Notes: generated by a model not told the origin, from the sequence alone. A stretch of DNA of 64,000 nucleotides from Oscillospiraceae bacterium (GCA_015068865.1 SVJT01000001.1:6040-70039); one strand, 5' to 3'. Numbered from the stretch's first letter, positions 4,129-47,025 are shown. Numbers and translations are program-made.

Positions 4129-5064
4129 TTAATCGGCATAAATTTTTTCAATGGCAGCAATTACCTCTCTGCCATATTCCGGCGTAACGATGTTACTTTC
4201 TTCGCCCTTTAAGAATTTAACAAACTCCACCAGCTGGTCATATAACAAATCGGTCGTGCCGCCGTAATTCACCCACTGGTTATTTTCAAACACGCAGAAA
4301 TCGGAACCGCCGGCAGCTTTTGCCATACCGTTTGTGAAATAAAATACAGTTTCATAAGCACGGGTGTCGGGGCAGCCGCAGTAAGTAACGGTAGCCGTAA
4401 TATTACCTGTAAACTTTAACAAAATCTGTGCATTGATTTCCACATTATCATCAGAAAGAGGGTTAGAAAGGTAAGACGTTGCCTCTACGACCTTCTCCCC
4501 GGAAACATACATAATTTTATCAATGGTGTGAGCACCATAGTTCATCACAATGCCGCCACCGGACAGTTTTTTATCCAAAAACCACTTAGGACGACCGGGC
4601 AGATAGTTTACGTTACGGACTTCGGTAATCATTTTCAGTTCGCCCAGCTTACCGCTTTCTTTAATCTTCTTAATTTCTTCATAGGCTGAATAGTAGCGTT
4701 GTACGTGACCAACCGCCAGCTTGGCACCGCTTTTTTCAGCGGCGGCTATCATACTGTCACACTCTTCAACGCTCATGGCCATAGGCTTTTCTACCAGCAC
4801 ATTTACCCCTTTTTCCAGGAAATAAACCGTTACATCATGATGGAGAAAATGAGGCAGATTTAAAATCACAGCATCCAGCTCCACCTGCTCACACATTTCC
4901 TTGTAATCAGTAAAACTTTTTGCTTTGTGTGCTGCTGCAATTTCTTCGGCACGCTCAAGCACCGTATCACAAACGGCTACCAATTCACAATCTTCATTTC
5001 TCAAAATGGCAGCACTATGGTCTCTACCGATAATACCAGCACCAACAATACCTAATTTAAACAT
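4129..5064 (-). CDS. Gfo/Idh/MocA family NAD(P)-dependent oxidoreductase
   Basis: N-terminal Rossmann motif LGIVGAGIIGRDH and the EKP motif (VLVEKPMAMS). 311 aa. SD GGAGGAA. Confidence 0.85.
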   Translation of the reverse strand: MFKLGIVGAGIIGRDHSAAILRNEDCELVAVCDTVLERAEEIAAAHKAKSFTDYKEMCEQVELDAVILNLPHFLHHDVTVYFLEKGVNVLVEKPMAMSVEECDSMIAAAEKSGAKLAVGHVQRYYSAYEEIKKIKESGKLGELKMITEVRNVNYLPGRPKWFLDKKLSGGGIVMNYGAHTIDKIMYVSGEKVVEATSYLSNPLSDDNVEINAQILLKFTGNITATVTYCGCPDTRAYETVFYFTNGMAKAAGGSDFCVFENNQWVNYGGTTDLLYDQLVEFVKFLKGEESNIVTPEYGREVIAAIEKIYAD

Positions 5065-5076
5065 CTGTCATTCCTC

Positions 5077-6717
5077 CTAAATATGTTTTTTAATCTCGTT
5101 ATTGACAATTTCACGCAAACGCAAAAGGAACGTTTTATCGTGAGGATACTGGTCGAAGCGAATTTCCATCCCCGCTTCTTTTTCAATGAGTTCTACAACC
5201 TTTTCCTTGCCGATAAAGCTTTCTAATAGTTTTAAAGCACGCAAGTCTTGCAGGGCATCGTAGAACACCAAAATACGCAGGGACTCAATGGGTCCTTCCG
5301 GTCCGGGATAAACGGAAAATGCATCACCGGACTGATAGGAGTTAATGGCATCCGTAATCATAAAGGGGTTAATCTGCTTTAAGGAAAGGGCTGAGTTATA
5401 GAAATTATAACCCCAATGCAAAAAGCCGAACACATCGAATTTATAGAACTGCAGACCAATAACACGGTTGCGATAAGAAGGCATTGCCATAAACCGGTTG
5501 CTCACATTAACAGCCTGAGAGCAGCAGTAATATGCCCACATATCCGGCACATTGTTTTCAATAAAGGGTTCAATTCTGTTGGTAGAGGGAATGGGATGGT
5601 CTACCACACCTTTTTTATAATAATCAAAATCGGAAAGAGCATCAATAAACTCATAGCCGGGCAGATACTGTTTCACCTGCTCCTTTAGCATTAAATAACG
5701 CTCTAAGTGCTCGCCGTGAGGCTCATCGGAAATATGGAAGAAGGTGTTTTCGTGAATACCCTCTTCCCGAAGAACTTTATCAAGCGCCGGCAAAAGCTGA
5801 GATAAAAAGTTCATATAACGGGGGTCATCTGAAGCGACATCCCAGCCGAAAATCCGCTTATATTCCCCATTTTCCGTTGCCATAATTTTCGGGGTGAATT
5901 CAAGACCCCACTGGGTGAACATATGCGCCATTTCATAATAACGGATGCCGTTTTTCTTACAAATGGCAATCCAGCGGCGGAGCTTGTCAAAACCGAAGCT
6001 ATAGGTTTCCCCGTCCTTTGTCACATCCACCAGCTGAACAGTGGTACGCTCATGCCCCACCTGAGTGTCAAGAGGCGGTGTGTAAATGGGGGTTAGCATC
6101 ATATTAATGCCGTTATCTGTGGCGGTTTTCATAAATTTATCAATCAGCTCCCAATGCTCTTCGGAGAACACGGGCACCTGATAGTAATTCGCCAGACAAT
6201 CAGCGTGGAACCACTGGGTGAAAACCATCTCCTGTTCGGGAAGCAGGGCATCAATCACCTCAACGGTCATAGTTTTGGAAAAACTACCTTCTTTATCACT
6301 CAGCACCACTTCAATGGGGTATGTACCGGCTTTCACGGAGCCATCTAAGGTCACCGTAATCCACAGGCTGTGCCAAGCGCAGCGAACAACCTCCATAATG
6401 CCTTCTTCCATCGGATAGAGCACGTCGGGGAACAGCCCGGGCTCATAGCGTTCATAATATTCGTCACTCTCTACACGAATGGGATATTCAGAAGGCACAT
6501 TGCCCACCTTGCGGATGGTTACAAAATTCGCCAAAGGGGAATTCACCGTAATATCCATATTCCGGCGCATATAATTGTTGTCACCATTATAGGCAATCTG
6601 ATAAGAAAATTTCTCGTTTTTCATCACCGACATCTGCAGAAATTCTGCTTCGGGCAAGGTGTAATCAAGATACACTTTCTCTAATGAAGAAAGCTGAAAC
6701 AATGTCATTGTGCTCAT
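5077..6717 (-). CDS. DUF4091-type protein, possibly a GH123-like beta-N-acetylhexosaminidase
   Basis: 546 aa, no signal peptide. Overall size and layout recalled as the DUF4091 family. FHISDEPHGEH contains an adjacent Asp-Glu pair like the GH123 catalytic dyad. The assignment is from memory of the family, not a search. Confidence 0.55.
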   Translation of the reverse strand: MSTMTLFQLSSLEKVYLDYTLPEAEFLQMSVMKNEKFSYQIAYNGDNNYMRRNMDITVNSPLANFVTIRKVGNVPSEYPIRVESDEYYERYEPGLFPDVLYPMEEGIMEVVRCAWHSLWITVTLDGSVKAGTYPIEVVLSDKEGSFSKTMTVEVIDALLPEQEMVFTQWFHADCLANYYQVPVFSEEHWELIDKFMKTATDNGINMMLTPIYTPPLDTQVGHERTTVQLVDVTKDGETYSFGFDKLRRWIAICKKNGIRYYEMAHMFTQWGLEFTPKIMATENGEYKRIFGWDVASDDPRYMNFLSQLLPALDKVLREEGIHENTFFHISDEPHGEHLERYLMLKEQVKQYLPGYEFIDALSDFDYYKKGVVDHPIPSTNRIEPFIENNVPDMWAYYCCSQAVNVSNRFMAMPSYRNRVIGLQFYKFDVFGFLHWGYNFYNSALSLKQINPFMITDAINSYQSGDAFSVYPGPEGPIESLRILVFYDALQDLRALKLLESFIGKEKVVELIEKEAGMEIRFDQYPHDKTFLLRLREIVNNEIKKHI

Positions 6718-6733
6718 ATTATTACCTCCTATT

Positions 6734-9193
6734 TTACTCGTTTTCTCTTAAATAGCGCTCTGATTCGTTCCAATAGTTCATAGATTCCACCGGCTCTTCG
6801 TCAAGCTGCCAGTACTGGGTCATCATGCGTTCCTTCTGGGGACCCTCTGCGGCAATGCCGGCAAGATAGTTCTTTAATTCGGTTACTGCCAGGCTGCCCT
6901 CTTTGCCAAAGGCATCGGTATGACAGTAATCAACCAAAGCTTTCAGCATAGCACAGGATGCCGTGTCATAAGAATCCACACCGGTAAAATTCATACCGGT
7001 AACCAAAAGCCGTCCCTTCCCCACTTTTAATGCAAAAGCATAGCTGAAGTGACGCATGGTGCGGTCATACATTAATTCCGGCAGTCTGAATTTTGTGGCA
7101 TCAAACCGGTCACGGCTACTTTTATCCAGGCCACTGACAATGGAATGTACCGCCGTGGGGAAATCGTCTAAATTAATCTTGTCACTATCATCAATTAAGT
7201 TATAATACTGGAAGTTAATCTGACCGTCGGTGACAAAGCCCAAGCGGTTTAAGGTTTTCCCATCCACCGGACCGCCATTGATGGTACCACGGTCCCAGAT
7301 AACCCCTTTATACCGATCCCACACATGACGGAAGGAATATTTTGGTGCTTTCATATCCTTATGGAGCAGATGACGGGTCCAGTCGGTGCGGTAAATGAGC
7401 ATTACATCCTGACCCTGCTCTAACTTTTCAAATAAGGCATCATCCAGCTTATCCGTTAACAATAAGGATGAAGTCTCATTGAATTTACAAACTCTGTCTA
7501 AGTAACTTGCCTCCATATCTGCCTTCGCATCTAAAGAAAGCTCACGGCAGGCAGGCATAACCCACAGCTCCCAGCTGTTTTCGCAAACGGTGCCGTCGGC
7601 AAAATCCAAGCGGCAATCAAGGGTCAAATGGGTACTTTCTGTCGGCATGAACACCTCTAAGCTGCACAGGCTGTATAAGCCGGAGTCACCGGTATCCACA
7701 TCCCGCAGAGTGCCTTTTGTATAAACTTTGCCGCTATCATCCGTCAAGGTATAGGTAAACATCGCTTTTTTAGGCGGATTAATCATAAACTGAGAAAGCA
7801 AAACAGGAATTTTGGCTGTTTCGCCATAGCCATATACCTGCTTGGGGAGTCTGGCTAACAGAACGGTATCGGCATTAAACTTGCGGAATTCCTCTGTGGA
7901 AATACCATGAGGATCATCAAAGCAATCCACCACGCCGTTGGAGTTTTCATACCGGTCGGTATCAGCAAACTGAAGCATATGGAAGCCGGAGAGGAGCTTA
8001 CTGGAACGAATGCCCTCTAATGCTGCCTTCCAGCAACGGAACTGAAAGTCCTTGGTGATCTGCAACGTATCTGCAAAGCCTTCTTTATAGCCCTTTGCCT
8101 CAATCATTTTAATTTCTTCCTCTACCCACCAAGGTGCAGGACGGCCATATTTTGCAAACTTTTCTTTTAGTGCATAAAAATCTCGCCAGGAGGTGTAATG
8201 ACAAACCTCGTGAGCAATCAAGGGGCGGGGGAACTGAATCCCACGACGGATTTTTCCGTTTCCCTCTTCCACCACCATATCCCGGTTATTCACCGTGCCA
8301 AAGCACAAGAGATTATCCGTATTTTCAAACATATCTGCATTCTTGCCGTAAGGGAAGAAATAGCTCATATGCTGCACATCAAAATCCACATAGTCACGGT
8401 CATATTCACCGTGGGCACAGGTATCAATAAACAAACGGTTGGGGTCATTTTCCTTAATAAATTCGCAGATTTCTCGGATCCTGGGTTTCTTCCCCGGCTC
8501 ACGGATTTCATTGCCCACACAATAGACCATAAAAGAGGGATGATTATATAAGGTTTCAATGATTTCCAGTAATCTATCATTATTGATGAAATCATTTTTG
8601 CCGTAAAGCATTTCCTCTAAGTTGTCGTAATCATCATTTTCCTTACGCATTTCAATATGGATTAAAATACCCAAATCGTCGGCAGCACGAAAGCAAGCCT
8701 CCGGCGGAATCACAGAGTGAAAACGAATGGTGTTAAAGCCATAGCTTTTTGCCATTTCTATATTCTTTTTATAAAAATCATATTCAGATAAATTACAGTT
8801 ATTCTCGTGCTCGTGTGCCGCCGCACCGCGAATATAGGCACGCATATAGAAGGGATAACCGTTTAAATAAATGTTTTTAGCATCGGTAGATACATAACGA
8901 AAACCAAAACGGTCTCCCATTTCTTCTGTTTCACCGTCTGCATAGGTAATTGCCAGTGATAATATGTATAAATTCGGCTGCTCTACTGACCACATTTGGG
9001 CATCAAACTGCGCCGAAAGGGTTGCCTCAGCGCCCGTAACCATCGCTTCACCGGTTGCCAGTTCTTTTCCGGCTTTATCTGTGATAGCAAAACGGCAATC
9101 TTTAATCTCTTTTTTTGCAAGAATAACCGCCTGCATTCCCTCTTCAGGGTGGGCAGCTGTTATTTTTAAAACAGTGTGTTTCTCTGTAATCAT
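6734..9193 (-). CDS. Glycoside hydrolase family 2-like (TIM-barrel beta-galactosidase/glucuronidase/mannosidase type), cytoplasmic
   Basis: 819 aa. NIYLNGYPFYMRAYIRG, NTIRFHSVIPP, the CVGNEIREPG (NE acid/base-like) motif and IAHEVCHYTSW (nucleophile-like E-x-x-H) motif. No signal peptide. SD AGGAGAG. Confidence 0.7.
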   Translation of the reverse strand: MITEKHTVLKITAAHPEEGMQAVILAKKEIKDCRFAITDKAGKELATGEAMVTGAEATLSAQFDAQMWSVEQPNLYILSLAITYADGETEEMGDRFGFRYVSTDAKNIYLNGYPFYMRAYIRGAAAHEHENNCNLSEYDFYKKNIEMAKSYGFNTIRFHSVIPPEACFRAADDLGILIHIEMRKENDDYDNLEEMLYGKNDFINNDRLLEIIETLYNHPSFMVYCVGNEIREPGKKPRIREICEFIKENDPNRLFIDTCAHGEYDRDYVDFDVQHMSYFFPYGKNADMFENTDNLLCFGTVNNRDMVVEEGNGKIRRGIQFPRPLIAHEVCHYTSWRDFYALKEKFAKYGRPAPWWVEEEIKMIEAKGYKEGFADTLQITKDFQFRCWKAALEGIRSSKLLSGFHMLQFADTDRYENSNGVVDCFDDPHGISTEEFRKFNADTVLLARLPKQVYGYGETAKIPVLLSQFMINPPKKAMFTYTLTDDSGKVYTKGTLRDVDTGDSGLYSLCSLEVFMPTESTHLTLDCRLDFADGTVCENSWELWVMPACRELSLDAKADMEASYLDRVCKFNETSSLLLTDKLDDALFEKLEQGQDVMLIYRTDWTRHLLHKDMKAPKYSFRHVWDRYKGVIWDRGTINGGPVDGKTLNRLGFVTDGQINFQYYNLIDDSDKINLDDFPTAVHSIVSGLDKSSRDRFDATKFRLPELMYDRTMRHFSYAFALKVGKGRLLVTGMNFTGVDSYDTASCAMLKALVDYCHTDAFGKEGSLAVTELKNYLAGIAAEGPQKERMMTQYWQLDEEPVESMNYWNESERYLRENE

Positions 9194-9214: not shown

Positions 9215-10003
9215 TTAATAAAATGCACGCCAAAGTGCTTCTTCTACCGTATCGGCTGTCACGGTAAAGCTTCTGCCGTCAATCATCTGCATATAGGGCT
9301 TGCAGGAAGGACGGAACATTTTCGTCCGTTCAATCATCTCCATTTTGCAGGTGATGGGTCCTTCTATCACATAAGGCTGAATGGAATCTGCTTTTTCCAC
9401 AGCCTCTTTTGCTTTTTCATAAATGAGCTTGTGGGCCTTGCCCGGGGGCAACAAAATACCACCTGTGCAGGACAGGCCTTTTTTTACCTCAGCCGTTACC
9501 ACATCGGGCATAATGGCTTTGGCCTCGGCACAAACCTTATCGTCGCCGCTGACCATAATCACCTTAACGCCCTGCTCGCCGGCAATGGCAGCATCTACAG
9601 CGGTTTCACCCACTTTTTCGCCGTTAATGTACATATTCTGCACATCCAGACCAAAGGTGTGCTCCAAAATGGCGCCTTCCGTGCCAGCCATAGCATGATA
9701 ACCCAATAAAACCATAGCGTCAATATCGGTTAAATCACCGTATCGACGGTCACCCACATAACCGCAGATGTACCCATCTGCAAGCGGAATAGCCTGCTCC
9801 CAGTCAAACATCCAACCGCCCCCGTGACAGTCGTGGACAATGACTTTATCGGCACCGCCTGCCTTTAACCCTTCTACGCAGGCATTAATATCTGCCATTA
9901 AGCAACGGCGGCCTTCGGGATTCTGCCAGCGGCCTTCACGAGTCTGATCGTTACTGTAAATCCCGCTGATACCCTCTATATCAACCATAACATAAACATT
10001 CAT
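9215..10003 (-). CDS. Peptidase M55 (DppA-type D-aminopeptidase) family protein, copy A
   Basis: MNVYVMVDIEGISGIY start, VHDCHGGG and LGYHAMAG metal-ligand-like motifs. 262 aa. SD AGGAGGGG. Confidence 0.8.
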   Translation of the reverse strand: MNVYVMVDIEGISGIYSNDQTREGRWQNPEGRRCLMADINACVEGLKAGGADKVIVHDCHGGGWMFDWEQAIPLADGYICGYVGDRRYGDLTDIDAMVLLGYHAMAGTEGAILEHTFGLDVQNMYINGEKVGETAVDAAIAGEQGVKVIMVSGDDKVCAEAKAIMPDVVTAEVKKGLSCTGGILLPPGKAHKLIYEKAKEAVEKADSIQPYVIEGPITCKMEMIERTKMFRPSCKPYMQMIDGRSFTVTADTVEEALWRAFY

Positions 10004-10018: not shown

Positions 10019-10810
10019 TCACCAGAATGCTCTCCAGAGCGCCTGTTCAACCGTGTCACCGGTTACGGTGTAGGTTCTGCCGTCTAAAATCTCCATATAA
10101 GGCTTAACGGAGGGACGGAACAAACGGGTTGCCTCTGTCATTTCCATTTTGCAGGTAATGGGACCGGGAATAACATAAGGCTTGATGGAATCTGCCTTTT
10201 TCACAGCTTCTATGGTCTTTTCATAAATCAGCTGATGAGCCTTTTCCGGCGGTAATAAAGTTCCGCCCAGTCTTGATAATCCTTTTTTCACCTCAGCTGT
10301 GACCACATCGGGCATAATGGCTTTAGCCTCGGCACAAACCTTATCATCACCGCTTACCATAATCACCGGCACGCCCTGCTCACCGGCAATGGCGGCATCT
10401 ACCGCCGTTTCGCCCACTTTAACGCCGTTAATATACATATTCTGCACATCTTTGGAGGAATAAGTATGCTCTAAAATAGCTTCCTGCGTTCCGGCCATAG
10501 CGTGATAACCCAAAAGAATCACCGCATCGAATTCTTCTAAATTAGCATAGCGGCGGTCGCCTACATAACCGCAAACATACCCATCTGCCAAATCGGAGGC
10601 CATTTCCCAGTCAAACATCCAGCCACCACCGTGGCAATCGTGGACATAGACTTTATCCACGCCGGCATCCTTTAAGCCTTTCACGCAGGCATTAATATCG
10701 CCCATTAAATGACGGCGACCCTCCGACACCTGCCAGTGCTCCTCACAGACCTGATCACGGTTATAAATACCGCTGATGCCCTCTATATCAACCATTACAT
10801 ACACATTCAT
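10019..10810 (-). CDS. Peptidase M55 (DppA-type D-aminopeptidase) family protein, copy B
   Basis: Paralogue of 9215..10003 with the same motifs. I place the start at ATG 10810 (SD GGAGGC). The track start at 10864 would overlap a TTGCGA-17-TATAAT promoter. Confidence 0.8.
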   Translation of the reverse strand: MNVYVMVDIEGISGIYNRDQVCEEHWQVSEGRRHLMGDINACVKGLKDAGVDKVYVHDCHGGGWMFDWEMASDLADGYVCGYVGDRRYANLEEFDAVILLGYHAMAGTQEAILEHTYSSKDVQNMYINGVKVGETAVDAAIAGEQGVPVIMVSGDDKVCAEAKAIMPDVVTAEVKKGLSRLGGTLLPPEKAHQLIYEKTIEAVKKADSIKPYVIPGPITCKMEMTEATRLFRPSVKPYMEILDGRTYTVTGDTVEQALWRAFW

Positions 10811-10835
10811 TTTGATAGCCTCCATTCTTTTCTTC

Positions 10836-10864
10836 ATTATATCAACAAAACCGCCTGTTCGCAA
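10836..10864 (-). promoter_or_regulatory. Sigma-A-type promoter of the cytoplasmic enzyme operon (M55-M55-GH2-DUF4091-Gfo-...)
   Basis: Minus strand reads TTGCGA (10864-10859), a 17-nt spacer, then TATAAT (10841-10836), about 25 nt upstream of ATG 10810. Confidence 0.6.
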
Positions 10865-10910: not shown

Positions 10911-11459
10911 TTAATTATTTTTTCCTTCTTGAACATTTTCGCCCTTATCATCCTTTTTTCCTTTTACATCTCTTACAATAACAGAAATAATTTGGAAAAT
11001 AAATAAAACAATGTGAGTGAATAAATTTCCGTATGCCGCGGCAAGAAAATCATAGAAAATCCAAATACTTGAATTAACAAAAGCCAGTATGCGATAATAT
11101 TTTGCATTGCTTTGTGCCACGCTCACCACAAAGACCATGGATGCTGCCAAAGCAAATACATCATACCAATGGGCAAAGGTCATTAAATTAATCGAAAGAA
11201 AGATGACCGCATAAACAATGATCAGCCAAAAGGGTACCTTTTTCCCTTTTGAATCAAAAATATAATTAATAAACACTTGCACACAAGCAAAAGCGCAGAT
11301 GGCAGCACCACTGTTTTGCCCTACCATCAGATAGCTTAATCCAACCAAAAAATTCCCTGTAAAGTTCAGGGGCAGGATGGTTTTCATTTTTTTGCCGAAA
11401 GGCTCTATCAGTCCTAAAATTGTTGCTATAAAAGAAGCTATATAAGAAGCGTTTGCCAT
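10911..11459 (-). CDS. Small polytopic membrane protein, YgjV-like
   Basis: 182 aa with five to six hydrophobic helices and a Lys/Asp-rich tail. Length and N-terminal pattern resemble the YgjV (Imp-YgjV) family. SD AGGAGGAA. Confidence 0.5.
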   Translation of the reverse strand: MANASYIASFIATILGLIEPFGKKMKTILPLNFTGNFLVGLSYLMVGQNSGAAICAFACVQVFINYIFDSKGKKVPFWLIIVYAVIFLSINLMTFAHWYDVFALAASMVFVVSVAQSNAKYYRILAFVNSSIWIFYDFLAAAYGNLFTHIVLFIFQIISVIVRDVKGKKDDKGENVQEGKNN

Positions 11460-34635: not shown

Positions 34636-35535
34636 TTAACCCTTAACAGAGCCAATCATAATACCCTTAACAAAGTATTTCTGCACCATAGGATAGATGA
34701 GAACCATGGGCAAGCTAGCCACAATAACCAGTGAGTATTTTAAAAGCTCACTCATGAGTCGAGCCTGAGATTCTTCCATTGCATTGGTGGCATTTAATTC
34801 ATCCACCTGACCAAGCAACAGGATTTCACGCAATACAATCTGAATGGGATATAATCTCTGATCCTGAATGTAGAGATAAGCACTCATAAACACGTTCCAG
34901 TAAGCAACCATGTAGTAAAGCGCGATAACTGCCAGAGAGGGTTTCGCCAGCGGAACGGCAATCTGCAACAGATAACGGAAATCGTCACAGCCGTCCAGCT
35001 TTGCCGACTCTAAAATTTCACCGGCAACATTGGTCTGGAAGTAGGTTCTGATGATAATCATATTCCAAACGCTCATGGCAGAGGGAATGATTAAAGACCA
35101 ACGGGAGTTAAACAGACCTAAGTTTTTAACCAACAGGTAGGTAGGAATTAAACCGCCGGAGAACCACATGGTAAAAGCAAACAGCAAGGAAATGAGGCCG
35201 CCGATAGTAAAGTCCTTACGGGACAGGGGGTAAGCCGCCATAACGGTTACAATCATGCTGACAACCGTACCAACAACTGTGTAAATAACGGAGTTATACA
35301 TACCGGTCCAAACCTGTTTGTGCCGAAGCACCGCGTAATAACCTGCCACCGTGGGTTTAACAGGCAGGAACCAGACTTTACCTGCCATCAGTGCTTTTGC
35401 ATCACTGAAGGAAGAGCTTAATACAATGATAACGGGATATAAAATAATCAATAAACACAATGTAGCAAAAATTACGTTAAAAACGTCGAACGCTTTGTCT
35501 GCGCGTGTTTCTTTCAAATGATTACGTTTTGCCAT
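34636..35535 (-). CDS. Carbohydrate ABC transporter permease (LplC/YtcP-like)
   Basis: 299 aa, six TM helices. Binding-protein-dependent transporter EAA-like loop (ESAKLDGCDDFRYLLQIAVPLAKP). Confidence 0.85.
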   Translation of the reverse strand: MAKRNHLKETRADKAFDVFNVIFATLCLLIILYPVIIVLSSSFSDAKALMAGKVWFLPVKPTVAGYYAVLRHKQVWTGMYNSVIYTVVGTVVSMIVTVMAAYPLSRKDFTIGGLISLLFAFTMWFSGGLIPTYLLVKNLGLFNSRWSLIIPSAMSVWNMIIIRTYFQTNVAGEILESAKLDGCDDFRYLLQIAVPLAKPSLAVIALYYMVAYWNVFMSAYLYIQDQRLYPIQIVLREILLLGQVDELNATNAMEESQARLMSELLKYSLVIVASLPMVLIYPMVQKYFVKGIMIGSVKG

Positions 35536-35571: not shown

Positions 35572-36534
35572 TTACCACAAACCAACTTCGGTAATCTTCT
35601 TGGAAATTTTGTTCGTGGTCATAATCATCAGGAAGGAAACCACAGAAGCCATCAAACCGATAGCAGCAGGATAAGAATAGCTGGGAATACCGCCGCCGAT
35701 ACCGATTTTATACTCATAGGTGCTCAGCACTTCAGAAATTTCTAAGTTGGTGGGGTTCTGCATCATAAAGGTTTTATCAAAACCAACGCTGATGATAGAG
35801 CCTAAGTTCATAATGGTCATAATGGCCACGGTGGGCAGAATGCCTGCCAGGTCGATATGCCAGATTCGTCTGATTTTATTGGCACCGTCAATAATAGCCG
35901 CTTCGTGGAGCTGAGGGTCAACACCGGCCAGCGCAGAAATATACATAATGGAGCCCCAACCTGTGCTCTGCCAAACGCCGGACCATACATATAAGTGACG
36001 GAAGTATTTGGAAAGACCTAAAATGTTCACCTTTTCACCGGTAAGCAGCTGAATAACATTGTTAACGATACCGGACTGGGTGTTAAACAACAGCTGAATC
36101 AGGCTGACAATGATAACGGTGGATAAGAAGTGAGGCAGATAGGTTACCATCTGTACTGTTTTCTTAAACCGTTCATTTTTCAGGTAGTTCAGGCTGACAG
36201 CCAGCAGAATGGGGAAGGGAATGTTAATGGCCAGCGAATACAGGCTGATTGCCAGCGTGTTTCTGATTAACGGCCAGAACTGAGAGGAATTAATGAATCG
36301 GATAAAGTGTTTAAGACCAACCCATTCGCTGCCCATATAACCCAAACGGGGTTTATAGTCAATAAAGGAAATTCGCGCACCGTACATGGGCACATATTTA
36401 AATACAATTATGTATGCCAGCGGTATCAGAATCAAAACATAAAGCTGCCAGTTGGTTTTAATGTCAGAAAAATAACCGGTATACTTCTTTTTCTTCTTGG
36501 GTGTTGTTTCTGACGTAGTTGCTGTTTTTTTCAT
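35572..36534 (-). CDS. Carbohydrate ABC transporter permease (LplB/YteP-like)
   Basis: 320 aa with a Lys-rich N-terminus. EAA-like loop (HEAAIIDGANKIRRIWHIDLAGILP). The SD GGAGCG sits in the loop of a cagatt/aatctg hairpin. Confidence 0.85.
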   Translation of the reverse strand: MKKTATTSETTPKKKKKYTGYFSDIKTNWQLYVLILIPLAYIIVFKYVPMYGARISFIDYKPRLGYMGSEWVGLKHFIRFINSSQFWPLIRNTLAISLYSLAINIPFPILLAVSLNYLKNERFKKTVQMVTYLPHFLSTVIIVSLIQLLFNTQSGIVNNVIQLLTGEKVNILGLSKYFRHLYVWSGVWQSTGWGSIMYISALAGVDPQLHEAAIIDGANKIRRIWHIDLAGILPTVAIMTIMNLGSIISVGFDKTFMMQNPTNLEISEVLSTYEYKIGIGGGIPSYSYPAAIGLMASVVSFLMIMTTNKISKKITEVGLW

Positions 36535-36678
36535 AACAGATTCGCTCCAATCTGCCGCTCTGCCCGGCGAATAATGTAAATATAATGTATATGAGTCCCT
36601 TTTCGCGCAGAGAGGAAAATGAAAAGAGATTTACATTCAAAGTTATAAAGGGTTTTTGCCAGATTATTGGTTATTATA

Positions 36679-36728
36679 GCCTCCCTTGCCTAAAGGGAGG
36701 GGGACCACCGAAGGTGGTGGAGGGATTC
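36679..36728. repeat. REP/MITE-like repeat unit (type 1, forward)
   Basis: gcctcccttgcctaaagggagggggaccaccgaaggtggtggagggattc. It contains two mini-hairpins (ctccctt/aagggag and ccacc/ggtgg). 48 of 50 nt match the reverse complement of 40606..40655. Confidence 0.85.
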
Positions 36729-36963: not shown

Positions 36964-39900
36964 TTATTTAACAGGCTGCAGAGTACCCCAATTCCATAAG
37001 AACGCTTTCACCGTGTCGCCTGCTGCATATTCTGCAGTTAAAGCTGCACAGCCATAGAGCTTGCCGTTTACAACAGTTACGGGAACAGATGTCATTTTAA
37101 CCATTTTGTCGCCACTGTATTGAGCAATAATCAGCTTAGCATCGGAAGATACGCCGGCAGGAGCAGCTTCACCTAAGGTTACGCTGACAACATTTTTGCC
37201 TGCTGCCACTGCATATTCTGTTGCAAAGCCAACATTCTGTACTGCGTTACCAACTTTGAATTCGGTGTTAGCTGCAGCTGCAGTTGCAGAACCGGAGTAA
37301 AGCTGAATGTTATCTACAGAAGCACCAATCCACCACTGGTGGTTAGCCAGATTAGAAGTCATTTTTGTTACAACAACATTTTCCGCTACTAAACGACCAT
37401 TAATGTAAACATTAATTGCTTTGGTTGCATTGTTCTGTTCCAACTTCAAGGAGAACCATGTGTCAACAGGCATAACAGCAATTAACGGTGCGCCGGTTTC
37501 TGCAACAACACCATCTACCACACCGAGATAAACACCAACGGTCTCATCTGTCAGCTTCTTATAGAAAATATCAAACGTATCGCTGTTGCTGGTGATTACA
37601 GATGCCGTAGAGTAAACGGGATCCATTTTGGTAACCCATTCACCGTCAAACATAAAGTCTGCTTCTAAGTTCACGGTTTCTTCACCTGCAAAGTACTCAC
37701 CGAGATAAGTCTGTTCTTTAGTTGTGTCGGTGTATTTATTATCATTGATGTCAAGATATAAGCCGGAACCATCAGCACTGGAGGTCCACCATTTGCGACC
37801 AAAGGAAGAAATGTATTTGTTGCCGCTTCCATCCTGTACAATAGTCGCTACACCTTTAGAAGGAGCATTGCTACCCGGCACGATTAAGAAGTCGTTCCAG
37901 TTGGATTCACCAATTAGAGAACCATCATCGTCACCGTTACCCATACGGCCGTCTAAGTCCTTAGAGCCAACATCATATTTTTCAAAATCCTGTAAGAAGG
38001 TTCTGTTATCAATCCAGTAATAGGTGTTCTTCTGACCTCTGAAGATTTCCAGTGTCTTTTCACCTATAACTGTGCCATTTGCATCTTTTGCCTGAATGGT
38101 GATGTTGCCGGTGGGAGTGTCACCGGTAATGGTTAATTTACCGTTTGCATCAATGCTTGTGCCTGCATAGTTAGAAGCTAAGCCCCAAGTTACGGTAGCA
38201 TTCTGATCTGCCCAGGGCAGTTCAGGTGTTGCAGAATAGTTAAAGCTTGTAGCAGATGTGCTCTTATAAGGAGCAATTAAGAAATCGTCACCGGAAATGG
38301 TCCATGCACCAGCAACCTTTTCACCGGAATAGATTTCCAAATCATCAACAGGTGTACCAAACTTAATGCTGGTGATGGGAACGCCGATAACGCTCACTTC
38401 TTCACCTGTTTCAATATCGTTTACATCGGAGACAAATTCTTCAGCAGTAAACGCAGAACCGTTAATGCTTACAAAAATCTTATCATCTTTAACAACCAAC
38501 TTCATATTGGTAAAGCTGAAATCATCAGAGAAACTTGAGCCGTAACCATTAACGTCACCTCTTGTGTAAGTACCGGTATAGTTATAGGTACCAACCGTTT
38601 TCCAACGAGAAGCATCATCAATATGAGCACCGATTTCACTACCGATGGTATAATTTCTGTAATCCTGTGCTAATACTTTTGCAGCACCTTCTCCGGTGTT
38701 GGCTGCGCGTAGGTTAACATATACCGGCCAGGATTTATGAGCACCATCGTTCCAATAGGTATTACCCATAAAGGATTTATCATAATGAACCTGGACAGGC
38801 GTTACAGGGTTATAAATAGAATTACTTGAGAGATCAGCCATACCGGCAGAACGGAATTTTAATTCAACGCTTAATACCTGGGGTGCAAACTCTCCGTTTG
38901 CAAAGTTGACAGCAGCATTGCCTGGATTGCTCCAGGAACCTGCCTTAAAGGGGGCATAATTGTTACCATTGTTTAAGGTAGCAACACTTACGTTGTTGCC
39001 GTTTGTAATGAAGGACGGAATGGTACCATCTTCAAAGTTTGCACTGAGGCTGGTTGCATTTGTTGTAACTTCCATAGTAGCTTCTGCATCAGCAGTCGCT
39101 GCTTTTACGGTAAAGGTTTTACCCTTTGCCTGAGAGTCAATTAATAATTCACCGGTAGCAGGATTCATTTGTGCATAAGAAGCTACATTATCACCGGAAA
39201 CAGAATAAGTTACGCCTTCAGTAACAGCTTCACCTGCTTTGGTTTCCATACCGTACTGTACTTTAATAGTACCGGAAGAAGGCAGGAACAGTTTGCTGTC
39301 GCCTGTAACTTTAACAGCATCAAACATAGTAGCAGAAGCTTTTACACCGGTGTAGATTTCCAAATCATCAATAGGAGAACCGATACCAGCTGATAACAAA
39401 TTAACATTAGATACCGTCTCGGTTCCATCCTGAAGGAACCAAGTGCTGGTTGTTACACCGCTAATGGTGGTATTAATGGAGTTTCCTAACACTTCAAAAC
39501 GTGCAGGAACAAATTCGAAATCACTAAAGGTACAGGTTGCTTCGTCATAAGTTCCTACAATGTTAAATGTACCGGATTTATCTGTACCGGAAGGAATAAT
39601 GTAACCATGGTAGTCGCCTTTTGTAACATAGTCATAACGAGTTACATTTAACTGTGCCGGATTGCTATTGGATACAACAGACCAACCATTGGTAATTCTC
39701 CAGTTACCTACTTTACTACCATTATAGTCTCCTGCACCCACAAGGACTTTATCCCAATTTAATGTAAAGGGTTTATAAGGATGATGAGTACTTGCTGTGT
39801 TTGCAATGTTGGAAGCAATAAATTTTAAGTCAACCGTAATGTGACTGGATGCAAAGTTTGCACCTTCAAAACTTAAGGTCGTGTTGGGTGTACCCCAAGT

Positions 39901-40398
39901 GCCGTTGTAAACATTTAAGTATTTATTGCCCTTATTCTCCATAATAGTCAAACGACCATTGGAAGTTGTGGTAATATCAGACGGAACAGCACCATCTTCA
40001 AAGTCATAGAAATAAACTTTTTCACTAACTACAACAGATTTTGAACCTGTGTAATCGGCAGAAGTTGCAGACAGGAAGATTTCCTTGCCTTTTGCTGCCT
40101 GGCTCACATAGAGTGCGCCGGTTGCAGCATCAATCTGTGCATACTTCCAAATGTCGTCTGCAGCAATTTCGCTGTTATCAGCATTTTCTACTTTTGTAAT
40201 TGCGTAGGTTGCACCGTCTACTGTTGTGGTGCCGTCGGTTGTTAATGTGTACTGCACTTTAATGGGGCCGGTGGAGGGCAAAAACAGTTTTGCATCACCA
40301 ACCAGCTGACCTTCTGCAGCTGCAGCAGGCACAACTGCCATACCGCAGATGAGCATTAGTGTCAGTACCAAAGCTAATAAGCTTTTTACGTGTTTCAT
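36964..40398 (-). CDS. Secreted 1144-aa Ig-like plus LamG/ConA-like multi-module protein (paralogous in module grammar to the 1936-aa protein, no SLH)
   Basis: Signal peptide MKHVKSLLALVLTLMLICGMAVVPAAAAE. LVGDAKLFLPSTGPIKVQY and VTGDSKLFLPSSGTIKVQY modules. Module ends IDDLEIYTG, VDDLEIYSG and VDNIQLYSG. SD AAGGAGCG. Confidence 0.75.
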   Translation of the reverse strand: MKHVKSLLALVLTLMLICGMAVVPAAAAEGQLVGDAKLFLPSTGPIKVQYTLTTDGTTTVDGATYAITKVENADNSEIAADDIWKYAQIDAATGALYVSQAAKGKEIFLSATSADYTGSKSVVVSEKVYFYDFEDGAVPSDITTTSNGRLTIMENKGNKYLNVYNGTWGTPNTTLSFEGANFASSHITVDLKFIASNIANTASTHHPYKPFTLNWDKVLVGAGDYNGSKVGNWRITNGWSVVSNSNPAQLNVTRYDYVTKGDYHGYIIPSGTDKSGTFNIVGTYDEATCTFSDFEFVPARFEVLGNSINTTISGVTTSTWFLQDGTETVSNVNLLSAGIGSPIDDLEIYTGVKASATMFDAVKVTGDSKLFLPSSGTIKVQYGMETKAGEAVTEGVTYSVSGDNVASYAQMNPATGELLIDSQAKGKTFTVKAATADAEATMEVTTNATSLSANFEDGTIPSFITNGNNVSVATLNNGNNYAPFKAGSWSNPGNAAVNFANGEFAPQVLSVELKFRSAGMADLSSNSIYNPVTPVQVHYDKSFMGNTYWNDGAHKSWPVYVNLRAANTGEGAAKVLAQDYRNYTIGSEIGAHIDDASRWKTVGTYNYTGTYTRGDVNGYGSSFSDDFSFTNMKLVVKDDKIFVSINGSAFTAEEFVSDVNDIETGEEVSVIGVPITSIKFGTPVDDLEIYSGEKVAGAWTISGDDFLIAPYKSTSATSFNYSATPELPWADQNATVTWGLASNYAGTSIDANGKLTITGDTPTGNITIQAKDANGTVIGEKTLEIFRGQKNTYYWIDNRTFLQDFEKYDVGSKDLDGRMGNGDDDGSLIGESNWNDFLIVPGSNAPSKGVATIVQDGSGNKYISSFGRKWWTSSADGSGLYLDINDNKYTDTTKEQTYLGEYFAGEETVNLEADFMFDGEWVTKMDPVYSTASVITSNSDTFDIFYKKLTDETVGVYLGVVDGVVAETGAPLIAVMPVDTWFSLKLEQNNATKAINVYINGRLVAENVVVTKMTSNLANHQWWIGASVDNIQLYSGSATAAAANTEFKVGNAVQNVGFATEYAVAAGKNVVSVTLGEAAPAGVSSDAKLIIAQYSGDKMVKMTSVPVTVVNGKLYGCAALTAEYAAGDTVKAFLWNWGTLQPVK

Positions 40399-42449: not shown

Positions 42450-42517
42450 ATTATAGCCCTGCGAAATACTGGTTTCAACAAACAATTTCTGCCAAGCAAA
42501 CAGATTGTGGACTTTTT
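42450..42517 (-). promoter_or_regulatory. Promoter (TTGAAA-17-TATAAT) plus conserved upstream operator of solute-binding protein gene 1
   Basis: Minus-strand -10 TATAAT at 42455-42450 and -35 TTGAAA at 42478-42473. The 45-nt block 42473..42517 matches 44526..44570 at 43 of 45 positions, while the -10/-35 spacer and flanks have diverged. Confidence 0.7.
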
Positions 42518-42721
42518 TTGAATTTTTTTGAATTTTTAACCAATTTTCTTTTTGCGGCCAGCCAAAAGTGGCTTGAATACTGGCTTTTAGGCCTCTCCAC
42601 TTTTTGTTTGTATGCACATTTTTCCATTAAAAATTTTTCTTTCTTTAGCTACTGATTTTTTCATATACAACATGTGGTAGGCGCTCATTTTCAGACACAC
42701 AACGGTTCTTAAAAACCAGCA

Positions 42722-42754
42722 TAAAAAAAGAGTCGCCGTTTAAAACGACAACTC
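42722..42754 (-). terminator. Intrinsic terminator after solute-binding protein gene 2
   Basis: The minus-strand RNA forms GAGUUGUCG-UUUUAAA-CGGCGACUC (9-bp stem including two G-U pairs) followed by U7. It lies 23 nt after stop 42777. Confidence 0.7.
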
Positions 42755-42776
42755 TTTTTTGCAATTTAATTCTTAA

Positions 42777-44423: not shown

Positions 44424-44502
44424 AAAAACCTCTCCTTTTATTAAAATAAATGATTCTCTTTTTTATCGTGCGCCGCCAAACGCAGATAAAGCTTCTGATT
44501 TT

Positions 44503-44570
44503 ATTATAGAGGCTAAGGTTCTGAATTTCAACAAACAATTTCTGCCAACCAAACAAATTGTGGACTTTTT
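44503..44570 (-). promoter_or_regulatory. Promoter (TTGAAA-17-TATAAT) plus conserved upstream operator of solute-binding protein gene 2
   Basis: -10 at 44508-44503, -35 at 44531-44526, operator block at 44526..44570. Same spacing to the start codon as at 42450..42517. Confidence 0.7.
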
Positions 44571-44583
44571 GACACAAATATTG

Positions 44584-44621
44584 AAAAAAGTCCCGAAACT
44601 GTTTGTTTTCAGGACTTTTTT
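44584..44621 (-). terminator. Intrinsic terminator after the AraC-family regulator gene
   Basis: aaaaaagtcc...ggactttttt long imperfect hairpin immediately after stop 44623, followed by a U-tract on the minus-strand RNA. Confidence 0.7.
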
Positions 44622-44622
44622 G

Positions 44623-46878
44623 TTAATTCTTCTTTTGTTGATTGATATATTCCGAAGGACTCATCCCCAGCCGTTTTTTGAATACGCGGCGAAAGCTGAT
44701 GTCACTCAGGTAGCCTACCGCTTCGGCAACATCCTTAACCGGCATCCGGCTATCCAATAATTGACATGCCTTTTCTATGCGGATTCGCTCCAGATAAGAA
44801 GAGAAATTCTCTCCCATAAACTTTTTAAACATTTTGGAGATATATGTGCTGTCACTCATACCAAAGGCGGCAGCCAATGTATCACGAGATAACTCATTAC
44901 TGGTATAGTTCTCCTGGATATACTCCAGCATTTTGTTAAATTGACCGTTGTGGGAACTCTCTTCAAAAACTTTCACATTTTCACAAGCCGCAAACACAAA
45001 GTCACGAGCATATTCAAAGAAGCTTTTGATAGTGAAGTCACCCAAACGGTAACTCACACGTTCTTCGTCTTTAAAATAGGTCTGACGAACCTTGTTAAGG
45101 GAAGAATATATTTCGCTCAACAGCTCCTCCATTCGCAAGCAAGACAAACTTCTCTTAACAAAATTTTCTTCATATATTAAATCCAGAATCTTAGTTGCCT
45201 CGTTTACTTTTCCTGCCGCAATCGCTGTAATTAAGCCATTTTCAACCTCCAACGGGAAATGATACATCGTCTGGTCCTGAGGCAGTTCCTCATAAAACAG
45301 CTTATCCTTCGTGCCGGTCATATGGTTATAAGACACAATTTCACGCGCACAGCGATATGCCTCCGCAATATCGCAAAGACGGTCTGTGGACGTTCCGACA
45401 CCCAACAAAACTTCCATCCGGTAGCGATAGAAGACTTCCAGATTCATATTGACCAGCTGGTTTTTCAATCGCCGCAAAAATACCTTCGGTTCTTCATCAA
45501 AACCCAGCAAAACAGCCAGTGTTTTGGCATCTGCAATATAAATATACAGATTGTCACCTAAAAATTCTTCCAAAGCATGGGTTAAGAATATGTTTTTATT
45601 GCTCTCGCCCTCCACATTATAAACCGCCGCAGAACGCAATGCCAACACCGTAAAATGCTTGTAGTTCAGTTTCAGGCCGCTGTCTGCCACCAGACGCTCC
45701 GCCGCCGCCTCATCCTCTAGCGAGCCGGAAAGCAAAAAGTGCAACACTTTATAGTCACTTCGGTCATCCAATTTGTCCATACTTTCCTTAATTTGGCGGT
45801 TCTGATCTAACAAATCGCCAATATAAGGCTGCCAAAAATCAAACTCATTGGTTTTCAGCGCAGACACTAAGGGTCTTTTTTCAATTCCTAACATATGCAT
45901 GAGCCGTTGATAGGATTTATTACGACCATAGGTAAAATAAACGCAAAGAAGGCATCCAAGCAAAAAGGCAAGAATATTAATTGCACTTAAAATGCCGTTA
46001 ACGGAAACCATATCCTGCATAATATAATCGTAGTCAATAAAAATATGATACTGCCAACGACGTTGTGAACCGTGCAGAACAAAATGATACAGTTTCTTTC
46101 CGTCTATTTCAATAGACCGGTAGCTATCTTTTCCCTCTGTTTTCTGCACCGCATCTCTATATTTCTCTCCTTGGCTCAAAAGCAGCTCTCCATCGTTGGT
46201 TGTGACATAAATTTCGCCATTTCCTTCTGATAAAATAGCATCGAAGGAAGAAAGCAGCTGTTCCACATTGATTACTGCCGTTATGCTTCCTTCCTGTTGG
46301 GAAGGAGAATTCAGCGGCATAACACGGCTATAGGTCAAAAAAGGATATCGGCTTCTGTTCACCATCAAATCTCTCTGCTTTCCATAGCCATTTTCCCAAA
46401 GTTTCTCTTCAAAATCCTGTTTCCATTCTTCTGCTGTTTCCAAATCCGCCGGATGATATGACAGCAAAAAATCCTCCGGCTTTGAATAATAGTTTGAAGT
46501 ATCAATCAAAATATTGGAACCGGCACTGTACATATACAATTTTTCCGTTACACCATCTTCAATGTAATACGATGCCAGTCCTTTTTGAAGCTCTTTAATT
46601 TCAAAATAAGACAGATCTTCTTTCTCATAAAAAACACGGAATGCATCATTCAGCGAAATGCGGTAAATTACATCTTCAATCTGTTTCAGATTGGCTTCTG
46701 TCATATTAATATTATTGGTCAAGCTGTTATCAACCATCGCCAACATTCTTTTTTCATTATTCTGAATAACATACGCATTAGAAAACCACCAAATCAAAAT
46801 CGGCACAAGTAAAACGCAGGCATATGGCAGAATTAAATTGATGAATACACGAGTGTTTGAATCTTTCGCTTTTTTCAT
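44623..46878 (-). CDS. Transmembrane one-component regulator: N-terminal TM - extracytoplasmic sensor domain - TM - cytoplasmic linker - C-terminal AraC/XylS HTH
   Basis: C-terminal AraC HTH pair (YISKMFKKFMGENFSSYLERIRIEKACQLL ... VAEAVGYLSDISFRRVFKKRLGMSPSEY). Two hydrophobic helices (VFINLILPYACVLLVPILIWWF and ILSAINILAFLLGCLLCVYFTY) flank about 270 aa. Start moved to ATG 46878 (SD AGGAGCAG), making 751 aa. Confidence 0.8.
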   Translation of the reverse strand: MKKAKDSNTRVFINLILPYACVLLVPILIWWFSNAYVIQNNEKRMLAMVDNSLTNNINMTEANLKQIEDVIYRISLNDAFRVFYEKEDLSYFEIKELQKGLASYYIEDGVTEKLYMYSAGSNILIDTSNYYSKPEDFLLSYHPADLETAEEWKQDFEEKLWENGYGKQRDLMVNRSRYPFLTYSRVMPLNSPSQQEGSITAVINVEQLLSSFDAILSEGNGEIYVTTNDGELLLSQGEKYRDAVQKTEGKDSYRSIEIDGKKLYHFVLHGSQRRWQYHIFIDYDYIMQDMVSVNGILSAINILAFLLGCLLCVYFTYGRNKSYQRLMHMLGIEKRPLVSALKTNEFDFWQPYIGDLLDQNRQIKESMDKLDDRSDYKVLHFLLSGSLEDEAAAERLVADSGLKLNYKHFTVLALRSAAVYNVEGESNKNIFLTHALEEFLGDNLYIYIADAKTLAVLLGFDEEPKVFLRRLKNQLVNMNLEVFYRYRMEVLLGVGTSTDRLCDIAEAYRCAREIVSYNHMTGTKDKLFYEELPQDQTMYHFPLEVENGLITAIAAGKVNEATKILDLIYEENFVKRSLSCLRMEELLSEIYSSLNKVRQTYFKDEERVSYRLGDFTIKSFFEYARDFVFAACENVKVFEESSHNGQFNKMLEYIQENYTSNELSRDTLAAAFGMSDSTYISKMFKKFMGENFSSYLERIRIEKACQLLDSRMPVKDVAEAVGYLSDISFRRVFKKRLGMSPSEYINQQKKN

Positions 46879-46996
46879 GCTCTCTGCTCCTCTTGATGCA
46901 TAAATCTCAATTTTGAGCATAGAAAAATAAAGCTCATGCCCAAAATCGCACAGCTTTATCCATGTTGGCGGCAAATTTTCAGTTCAACTATTTTTG

Positions 46997-47025
46997 ATTA
47001 TAACAAACTTTCTGACGATAGTCAA
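46997..47025 (-). promoter_or_regulatory. Sigma-A-type promoter of the AraC-family regulator gene
   Basis: Minus strand reads TTGACT (47025-47020), a 17-nt spacer, then TATAAT (47002-46997). This leaves a 5' UTR of about 110 nt. Confidence 0.65.

Follow-up and report, generated by a model that had tools for sequence, protein, structure and literature searches.

A probable Gram-positive polysaccharide utilization locus of uncultured gut Clostridia with PL35-like lyases, SLH-anchored surface proteins, and a candidate amino-sugar conversion module

The closest described counterparts of the gene block presented here are the Gram-positive polysaccharide utilization loci (gpPULs) of gut Firmicutes and the systems that pair a depolymerase anchored by S-layer homology (SLH) domains with an ATP-binding cassette (ABC) importer, such as the xylan/aldouronate system of Paenibacillus. 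In both, the enzymes, a CUT1-type importer with its lipoprotein solute-binding protein (SBP), and a regulator are encoded side by side, and depolymerization at the cell surface precedes the action of exo-glycosidases in the cytoplasm. The capture of glycans at Gram-positive surfaces is nevertheless far less understood than that by the Sus-like systems of Bacteroidota. Here, we describe a 43-kb block of genes at 46974-4129 of a 64,000-nucleotide (nt) stretch of an Oscillospiraceae bacterium (GCA_015068865.1 SVJT01000001.1:6040-70039; hereafter the window), which shares the arrangement of these systems and most likely constitutes one conserved gpPUL of uncultured rumen and caecum Clostridia of the Oscillospirales type. 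On balance, and with moderate confidence, we favor the reading that this locus captures, cuts, imports, and digests a polymer of uronate and N-acetylgalactosamine (GalNAc), and that it carries a module for the conversion of amino sugars.

We found the block to be uninterrupted, with all genes on the minus strand, based on a listing of open reading frames (ORFs) and on Pfam, NCBIfam, and PDB searches, as a first-pass annotation of the window had described. Every credible gene among the ORFs of at least 150 amino acids (aa) between 1128 and 62649 lies on this strand, with intergenic gaps of -4 to 101 nt across 36534-4129 and four gaps of 199-429 nt at the upstream end. A single same-strand block thus brings together PL35-like lyases with GH123-like and GH2-like enzymes, SBPs and permeases, and an AraC regulator, the combination by which a gpPUL is recognized. 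Typical signal peptides occur in all six large proteins (1144, 1936, 909, 1017, 1403, and 1393 aa), one protein more than the five of 909-1936 aa that had been counted, while the C-terminal SLH anchors noted for three of them stood: the 1936-, 1403-, and 1393-aa proteins each end in three SLH repeats recognized by Pfam, and four of the six large secreted proteins are SLH-anchored. No signal peptide was seen in a cytoplasmic set of eight proteins, whose proposed composition of a DegT aminotransferase, an amidohydrolase/pseudo-amidohydrolase pair, two M55 proteins, a GH2-like and a GH123-like protein, and a Gfo/Idh/MocA oxidoreductase agreed with their Pfam and PDB matches.

The surface and cytoplasmic gene sets are linked in other genomes as well. 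Sister loci were found in a Clostridia metagenome-assembled genome (MAG) from goat caecum, which is the closest, and in other gut metagenomes, while the 909-aa protein led us to more distant relatives. The latter share a core in the order [AraC]-SBP-short FamA (765-804 aa; FamA denotes the family of the 1144-aa protein)-permease-permease-long SLH protein (1208-1248 aa)-909 family-PL35-like/CBM32/SLH enzyme. In six such relatives (L029, L031, L033, L034, L035, and L038), the surface proteins are 33-54% identical to those of the window, and the SBP and permeases 59-77%. Behind the lyase gene, L029 carries an M55 gene, L031 carries GH123-like and GH2-like genes, and L034 carries DegT with two amidohydrolases, while L038 has GH20 and GH123 upstream of the core and L037 has GH3 and DUF4432 attached to it. 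We take the recurrence of these accessory genes in different orders beside the core as the chief evidence that the surface and cytoplasmic parts form a unit, and the suggestion that the locus forms one coherent system gains from divergent relatives that keep the surface and transport core and attach M55, GH123/GH2-like, or DegT-trio genes (the trio being DegT and both amidohydrolases). What is observed directly is the gene content, the paralogy, the retained catalytic motifs, and this conserved linkage, and literature searches for this gene combination returned no paper describing such a locus. Core cassettes can also be repeated: one metagenome contig (L033, 1-21119) has the cassette in tandem, and GCA_052831105.1 contains at least two (L037 with GH3, L038 with GH20 and GH123).

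We propose a scheme in which all of the biochemistry, the direction in which the transaminase module works, the targets of the regulator, and the substrate are predictions. The membrane AraC-type sensor would detect breakdown products and activate the near-identical promoters before both SBP genes. At the cell surface, the SLH-anchored 1936-aa and 909-aa proteins, together with the unanchored 1144-aa Ig/LamG-like protein, would hold the polymer, and three PL35-type lyases, two of them SLH-anchored with CBM32 and one released, would cut it by beta-elimination beside uronic acids. Two lipoprotein SBPs would then pass oligosaccharides to a two-permease ABC importer whose ATPase is encoded elsewhere. 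Cytoplasmic release of monosaccharides would fall to an exo-beta-N-acetylgalactosaminidase and a GH2-like exo-glycosidase, the M55 pair would probably remove an aminoacyl or other amide substituent, and the amidohydrolase pair, the KdnA-like aminotransferase, and the Gfo/Idh/MocA oxidoreductase would turn an (N-acyl)amino sugar into an ordinary sugar via a keto intermediate.

The three heparinase II/III-like paralogues of the first-pass annotation proved lyase-like and mutually 47-70% identical, with the amendment that their nearest relatives are PL35 structures. Their Pfam Hepar_II_III_C matches fall below threshold, and their only significant catalytic-domain matches in the PDB are the PL35 entries 8khv, 8khw, and 9o3q (E 1e-19 to 1e-32), the 1017-aa enzyme being 25% identical to 8khv over 518 aligned residues. 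In the PL35 enzyme GAGase II, catalysis relies on Asn192, Tyr246, and His401, with His403, Asp405, Asp421, and His457 as Mn2+ ligands (PMC12088678). The catalytic triad is kept in the window, since each of the three paralogues carries the motifs TNWN, DYW, and ATH(G/A)RLD unchanged, in alignment with these three residues after a numbering offset. At the Asp421 and His457 ligands, no Asp or His is aligned in the lyases, in a part where the alignment is unreliable. The CBM32 modules, that of the 1393-aa lyase among them, are closest to those of the alginate lyase AlyQ (E 1.5e-17) and of YeCBM32 (E 1.9e-13). From their sequences, the three lyases are probably active beta-eliminating enzymes on a uronate-containing polymer, and they appear to branch off as a divergent group at the margin of PL35.

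Of all the clues to what the substrate is made of, the strongest is the match of the GH123-like protein to known beta-GalNAc-ases, as judged by sequence similarity. This predicted enzyme matches GH123_cat at profile positions 1-324 of 324 (E 1.6e-110) and 8k2l over its full length, with the catalytic DE motif SDEP aligned to SDEP. The crystallized strict exo-enzymes NgaLy and NgaP2 of this 'Group 4' act solely on linear oligosaccharides with terminal beta-GalNAc (PMC11087588). In the neighboring GH2-like protein, inspection of the translation gave VGNE and IAHEV as candidate motifs for the acid/base and nucleophile Glu residues. The protein begins at its Ig-like domain, as the N-terminal sugar-binding domain of ~220 aa is absent and upstream coding space for it is lacking, and its L031 orthologue has equal length at 67% identity. 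That the substrate is acidic and bears amino sugars, as first suggested, appears reasonable from the retained lyase triad, from CBM32 modules closest to uronate-binding CBM32s, and from the 8k2l match (E 4.5e-162) of the GH123-like protein. Our best guess is a non-sulfated acidic glycan with 4-linked uronate and beta-GalNAc, which may be chondroitin-, teichuronic-, or capsule-like.

The same evidence could be read as an ordinary locus for a glycosaminoglycan (GAG; chondroitin, hyaluronan, or heparosan), with the unsaturated-uronate steps encoded elsewhere and with the DegT/amidohydrolase/Gfo and M55 genes as a portable bystander module. Characterized PL35 enzymes degrade hyaluronan, chondroitin sulfate, and heparan sulfate (PMC12088678), a beta-GalNAc-ase and a GH2-like enzyme would suit chondroitin oligosaccharides, and the DegT trio is found on its own amid housekeeping genes in L007, L011, and L014. 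Against this, Pfam scans identified no sulfatase among the proteins of the window, and the DegT trio (L034) and M55 (L029) directly follow the lyase gene in rearranged loci that are 33-50% identical, an adjacency hard to ascribe to chance. Overall, we regard a plain GAG locus as possible but unlikely.

The cytoplasmic module stands apart from standard glycan catabolism. The closest PDB relative of the DegT protein is KdnA (5k8b, E 5.9e-66, full length), followed by inosose aminotransferases, and these solved relatives act on free sugars or cyclitols, not on nucleotide-sugars. The 260-aa amidohydrolase conserves the HxH, His, His, and Asp metal ligands, its closest structure being 3cjp (function unknown), while HxH and the strand-8 Asp are absent from the 250-aa partner in seven of seven orthologues, and this constant pairing with a ligand-less paralogue suggests, at the level of sequence, an obligate heteromer of enzyme and pseudo-enzyme. 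For the Gfo/Idh/MocA protein, the closest solved relatives are DgpA glycoside 3-dehydrogenases, 1,5-anhydrofructose reductase, and glucuronide 3-dehydrogenase. Using DegT for a genome scan, we found DegT and both amidohydrolases together in L007, L024, and L034, a Gfo/Idh/MocA gene adjoining the DegT orthologue in L009, L010, L011, L013, and L014 and at most ~1 kb away in L008 and L012, and all four genes together in L009, L011, and L014. The Gfo gene of L014 is followed by a xylose-isomerase-like TIM barrel and, further downstream, by a second DegT and a TRAP transporter. The Gfo-DegT pair of Paenibacillus sp. Root444D2 (L013) belongs to a sugar locus that also encodes an SBP, a xylose-isomerase-like TIM barrel, GH78, and a class-III aminotransferase, with a NagA-like Amidohydro_1 in place of the amidohydrolase pair. 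In the window, the Gfo gene is found 27 kb from DegT at the far end of the block, which supports treating the whole block as one unit.

DegT and Gfo/Idh/MocA also form a classic pair of amino-sugar biosynthesis, so that these genes, with the amidohydrolases and M55, might instead produce or modify an amino sugar destined for a wall polymer of the cell itself or for an S-layer glycan bound by the SLH proteins. NCBIfam matches to PseC, LegC, and UDP-GlcNAc 3-dehydrogenase point in that direction, far below their cut-offs, as does the occurrence of the DegT trio amid housekeeping genes. We consider such a biosynthetic role improbable: Pfam scans of the locus gave no glycosyltransferase, nucleotidyltransferase, flippase, or polymerase, the nearest solved relative of DegT takes a free sugar and not a nucleotide-sugar, the genes in question share an operon-like block with those of an importer and of cytoplasmic exo-glycosidases, and the Paenibacillus Gfo-DegT pair belongs to a clearly catabolic sugar locus.

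The surface proteins point to a conserved apparatus that extends beyond this locus. The 1208-1248-aa proteins of L029, L031, L033, and L034 match residues ~735-1936 of the 1936-aa protein with 33-46% identity. An AlphaFold model of the 909-aa protein (alignment of 12 sequences, mean pLDDT 76) supported the degenerate N-terminal SLH-like repeats that had been suspected there, as residues ~34-180 match the SLH trimer of SpaA with probability 1.0 and TM 0.6-0.69; PDB matches of the model were confined to this SLH part, the remaining beta domains having no meaningful one, and the family has no Pfam model beyond SLH. While a word-indexed search returned 12 matches, an exhaustive HMMER profile search found at least 150 full-length cluster representatives at E <1e-90, and 5,958 at E <=1e-30, some of the weaker of which may match the SLH region alone. 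The idea that the 909 family is extremely rare was overturned by this search. In all nine sampled relatives, the 909-family gene lies among carbohydrate-locus genes (PL35, GH3, GH5/GH39-like, CBM4_9, ABC sugar transporters, AraC), and its start usually overlaps the stop of the preceding surface-protein gene. For four more distant members, the contexts are an SBP, a LamG protein, an SLH protein, and a PL35-like enzyme in L035; permeases, CBM4_9/Big_5 proteins, a WbsX-like protein, and GH3 in L036; a 545-aa protein and an AraC regulator in L039; and a 1230-aa SLH protein with a GH5/39-like enzyme in L040. Because its members sit in loci with other enzymes, the family seems to serve as a generic surface component in Gram-positive glycan loci of the SLH type. 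An N-terminal SLH region followed by beta domains also resembles the architecture of S-layer proteins, and neither the 909-aa nor the 1936-aa protein has a recognizable catalytic domain, so the large SLH proteins could be S-layer or adhesion components with no nutritional role and the enzymes their chance neighbors. We find this highly improbable in view of the nine sampled carbohydrate loci and of the usual coupling to the preceding surface-protein gene.

The secreted FamA protein varies strongly between strains. It has no Pfam or NCBIfam match, is identical to a protein that NCBI names from a Ruminococcaceae/Oscillospiraceae MAG, and is paralogous to the 1936-aa protein (28% identity over ~1100 aa). 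The word-indexed search alone gave its count of 5 homologues, a method that undercounted the 909 family. Its predicted model is poor (6 sequences, pLDDT 54), with confident parts that are Ig-like; the gene has internal repeats at 996-nt spacing, and the L035 homologue gives a weak Laminin_G_3 match. FamA may be a non-catalytic binding module, and so may the N-terminal half of the 1936-aa protein. Compared with sister strain L003/L006, the permeases, DegT, and both amidohydrolases are 97-100% identical and SBP1 99%, whereas SBP2 (86%), AraC (77%), the 1936-aa protein (82%), and the 909-aa protein (86%) are less so, and FamA is 41-43% identical. In a DNA comparison, similarity to the sister strain is undetectable across the body of the FamA gene (40081-37187) and present at both gene ends, and homology in the flanking intergenic regions stops at 40654 and 36672, at two copies of a 52-nt double-hairpin element. 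This element occurs nowhere else in the window and has no exact match in the other loci compared with it; its 19-nt hairpin core recurs once more at 40505-40523. The variation of FamA suggests an exchange of allelic cassettes in an exposed recognition protein, which would fit a structurally variable substrate, e.g., bacterial capsules or extracellular polysaccharides, and equally phage or immune pressure. Recognition proteins that vary (FamA, AraC, SBP2) next to near-invariant permeases and cytoplasmic enzymes would be unexpected for an invariant host polymer, a further point against an ordinary GAG locus. Given the inverted repeats at both sides, we also considered an invertible FamA segment, which is not supported; Pfam scans found no recombinase gene in the window, and the flanking repeats are short double-hairpin elements.

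Control and import can be assigned to the upstream end of the block. The AraC regulator, which probably starts at internal Met 33, has a hydrophobic N-terminal segment and a clear HTH_18 match, in line with the transmembrane sensor-regulator first proposed, and the two paralogous lipoproteins and two permeases of that proposal were equally recovered, the SBP_bac_1 proteins with lipoboxes at 71% identity and both permeases as BPD_transp_1. No ABC ATPase gene lies beside these importer genes (34636-46974), so the energizing subunit must be encoded elsewhere. Promoter-like sites with 11/12 consensus matches precede the AraC (47025-46997), SBP1 (44531-44503), and SBP2 (42478-42450) genes, and terminator-like hairpins lie 3' of the AraC gene (44621-44584) and of SBP1. 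As the number of such sites in the scan was not above that in shuffled sequence, only their positions are suggestive. Alignment of the regions upstream of SBP1 and SBP2 revealed ~150 nt in common, with near-identical promoters and 5' leaders, and two direct repeats, AAT(T/C)TGTTTG and AAATTGTTTG, adjoin the -35 hexamer in both; these repeats are a candidate AraC operator. An Rfam search of the window gave no riboswitch or other RNA family.

The M55 proteins score 149 and 137 bits against the NCBIfam DppA model with a cut-off of 430, i.e., they do not reach equivalog-level similarity, and a metagenome scan based on M55 returned 3 loci, none of them syntenic. Phosphoesterases downstream of the block had been taken as a hint of phosphodiester decoration, a notion that is not supported: the HAD protein exceeds the curated cut-off of YjjG-type pyrimidine nucleotidase, the two EEP proteins weakly resemble exonuclease III, and these genes lie outside the conserved core. 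Since the EEP and HAD genes are not in that core and the HAD protein is a YjjG-type nucleotidase, we also rejected degradation of glycosphingolipid or glycosyl inositol phosphoryl ceramide head groups as the principal explanation, an idea that rested on the EEP proteins, a weak ceramidase match in L031, the GalNAc-ase, and the inositol-dehydrogenase-like Gfo. As a separate observation, L031 contains at 18750-19038, between its GH123-like and GH2-like genes, fragments of a homologue of the EEP gene at 1128-1925; they are 65-67% identical, cover about the first 96 codons, and appear to be a decayed vestige of an earlier gene order.

Several points weigh against a dedicated uronate/GalNAc locus with its own amino-sugar module. 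The lyases are just ~25% identical to characterized PL35 enzymes, and in all three of them Arg stands at the position of the Mn2+ ligand His403, although Asp405 is kept. As first noted, GH88, GH105, KduI, and KduD are missing: we obtained no Pfam or NCBIfam match to these families (or DhuI/DhuD) among ORFs of at least 150 aa in the window, which leaves the fate of the main lyase product unexplained. The DegT trio also occurs by itself in housekeeping surroundings (L007, and accompanied by Gfo in L011 and L014), i.e., the module is not exclusive to lyase loci, and its purpose may be unrelated to the imported glycan. To our knowledge, Amidohydro_2 enzymes have not been described as sugar N-deacetylases, and the role given to M55 is a guess.

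The features of the block are compiled in Table 1. On its upstream side, above 47083, lie housekeeping genes (M23 peptidase, PseudoU_synth_2, PLD-type, radical-SAM/HemN-like, LepA, and PurL), and 49962-50594 encodes a predicted 210-aa membrane protein with no family match. Below 4129 follow MgtC, the HAD protein, the two EEP proteins, and a fragment of a CehA/McbA-like metallohydrolase, a partial minus-strand ORF (1-1110) that runs off the window and has a CehA/McbA-type metallohydrolase domain and no Pfam match.

Table 1. Features of the block, in descending order of position in the window.
Feature	Position	Strand	Evidence and remarks
Membrane AraC-family sensor-regulator, 783 aa as listed	44623..46974	-	HTH_18 E 3.9e-20; dCache_1 and GGDEF_2 weak
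Solute-binding lipoprotein 1 (SBP1), 548 aa	42777..44423	-	SBP_bac_1 E 1e-15; lipobox LFTGC
Conserved promoter region	42450..42530	-	Direct repeats AATCTGTTTG...AAATTGTTTG abutting -35 hexamer; second copy ~44503-44580
Solute-binding lipoprotein 2 (SBP2), 541 aa	40745..42370	-	71% identical to SBP1; lipobox
Secreted FamA, 1144 aa, no anchor, center hypervariable between strains	36964..40398	-	Ig-like and probable LamG/ConA-like repeated units
52-nt double-hairpin element	36677..36728	.	Inverted partner 40606-40657, 96% complementary; flanks FamA gene
ABC permease 1	35572..36534	-	BPD_transp_1; 100% identical in L003, L005, L006
ABC permease 2	34636..35535	-	BPD_transp_1 slightly under curated cut-off; 69-98% identical in related loci
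DegT-family aminotransferase, free-sugar type (KdnA / inosose aminotransferase)	33306..34553	-	Pfam E 1.3e-83
Amidohydro_2-like protein without metal ligands, 250 aa (pseudo-enzyme partner)	32541..33293	-	
Amidohydro_2 metal-dependent hydrolase, 260 aa	31762..32544	-	Pfam E 2.3e-18; start overlaps preceding gene by 4 nt
SLH-anchored surface protein, 1936 aa	25876..31686	-	SLH E 4e-28; FamA-like N-terminal half, conserved C-terminal module, three SLH repeats
909-aa protein	23139..25868	-	N-terminal SLH trimer fold, then ~700 aa of beta domains
PL35-like lyase, secreted, 1017 aa, no CBM32, no SLH	20071..23124	-	8khv E 8.6e-32, 9o3q E 7.4e-27
PL35-like lyase with CBM32 and SLH, 1403 aa	15812..20023	-	Pfam, motif alignment
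PL35-like lyase with CBM32 and SLH, 1393 aa	11561..15742	-	8khw E 3.8e-26, 9o3q 3.3e-24, 8khv 3.6e-19
YgjV-family small membrane protein, possible small-molecule transporter	10911..11459	-	Imp-YgjV E 3.8e-15
M55 (DppA-like) metallopeptidase homologue 1	10019..10864	-	Pfam E 4e-68; 1hi9 E 4e-28
M55 homologue 2	9215..10003	-	78% identical to homologue 1
GH2-like cytoplasmic glycosidase	6734..9193	-	GH2 Ig-like and first half of TIM barrel; C-terminal part of BT4151-type enzymes
Predicted exo-beta-N-acetylgalactosaminidase (DUF4091/GH123-related 'Group 4')	5077..6717	-	8k2l E 4.5e-162, 8k2n E 1.1e-113
Gfo/Idh/MocA sugar oxidoreductase	4129..5064	-	Pfam, NCBIfam, PDB matches

Compared enzyme by enzyme with characterized systems, the locus combines familiar parts in an unusual setting. 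With the PL35 GAG lyases (GAGase II/VII, 8KHV/8KHW; chondroitinase 9O3Q), its lyases share the Asn/Tyr/His triad and, as implied by the alignment, the domain order of a toroid followed by a beta-sheet, but they carry an N-terminal extension of ~400 aa, CBM32 and SLH modules, and Arg in place of His403. Unlike the chondroitin PUL of Bacteroides caccae, the locus belongs to a Gram-positive host, uses an ABC importer instead of SusC/D, and has neither GH88 nor sulfatases nearby. The predicted beta-GalNAc-ase resembles the monosaccharide-releasing Group 4 enzymes (NgaLy/NgaP2; 8K2L-8K2N; PMC11087588) in its full-length match, its DE motif, and its character as a cytoplasmic exo-enzyme, and differs from the known ones in lying in a lyase locus. 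The M55 proteins have the full-length Pfam M55 match and the N-terminal D-x-E motif in common with the D-aminopeptidase DppA of B. subtilis (1HI9), whereas their score is far under the equivalog cut-off, the gene is duplicated, and the setting is a glycan locus, not a peptide-transport operon. For the module, the pairs KdnB/KdnA (Kdo8N), NtdC/NtdA (kanosamine), and inositol dehydrogenase with inosose aminotransferase likewise unite a dehydrogenase with a DegT protein on a non-nucleotide substrate. While those pairs are biosynthetic, the pair of this locus sits in an import and degradation block together with an amidohydrolase and a pseudo-amidohydrolase, and we therefore propose that it would work in the reverse, deaminating direction. 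The amidohydrolase, pseudo-amidohydrolase, KdnA-like, and Gfo proteins may convert an N-acyl amino sugar (e.g., GalNAc) to a neutral hexose via deacylation, transamination, and keto-reduction.

Set against gpPULs as a whole, the locus is of their general kind, with a front end of divergent PL35 enzymes and a cytoplasmic back end without precedent. In contrast to them, its lyase front end is present in three copies, it has two paralogous SBPs and three conserved surface families with no assigned function, and the transaminase, oxidoreductase, amidohydrolase pair, and M55 replace the usual sugar kinases and isomerases. The locus and its relatives in uncultured rumen and hindgut Clostridia point to a conserved set of surface proteins with no function assigned to them, a divergent branch of PL35, and a recurring cytoplasmic module with no pathway assigned; the substrate and the chemistry of the module, once identified, could define a new catabolic route for amino sugars or uronates and provide new enzymes for acidic polysaccharides. 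As the enzymes near the coupled pair of long SLH protein and 909-family protein differ between loci, being PL35 in the window, CBM4_9/GH3/WbsX-like in L036, and GH5/39-like in L040, this pair may be a glycan-capture platform of SLH-bearing Firmicutes that is reused with different enzymes. That such a generic platform is joined here to a phosphorylation-independent amino-sugar route is a tentative proposal, which we hold to be rather doubtful as a whole. The proposed long-SLH/909 platform would be the functional counterpart of the SusC/D-associated surface machinery of Bacteroidota.

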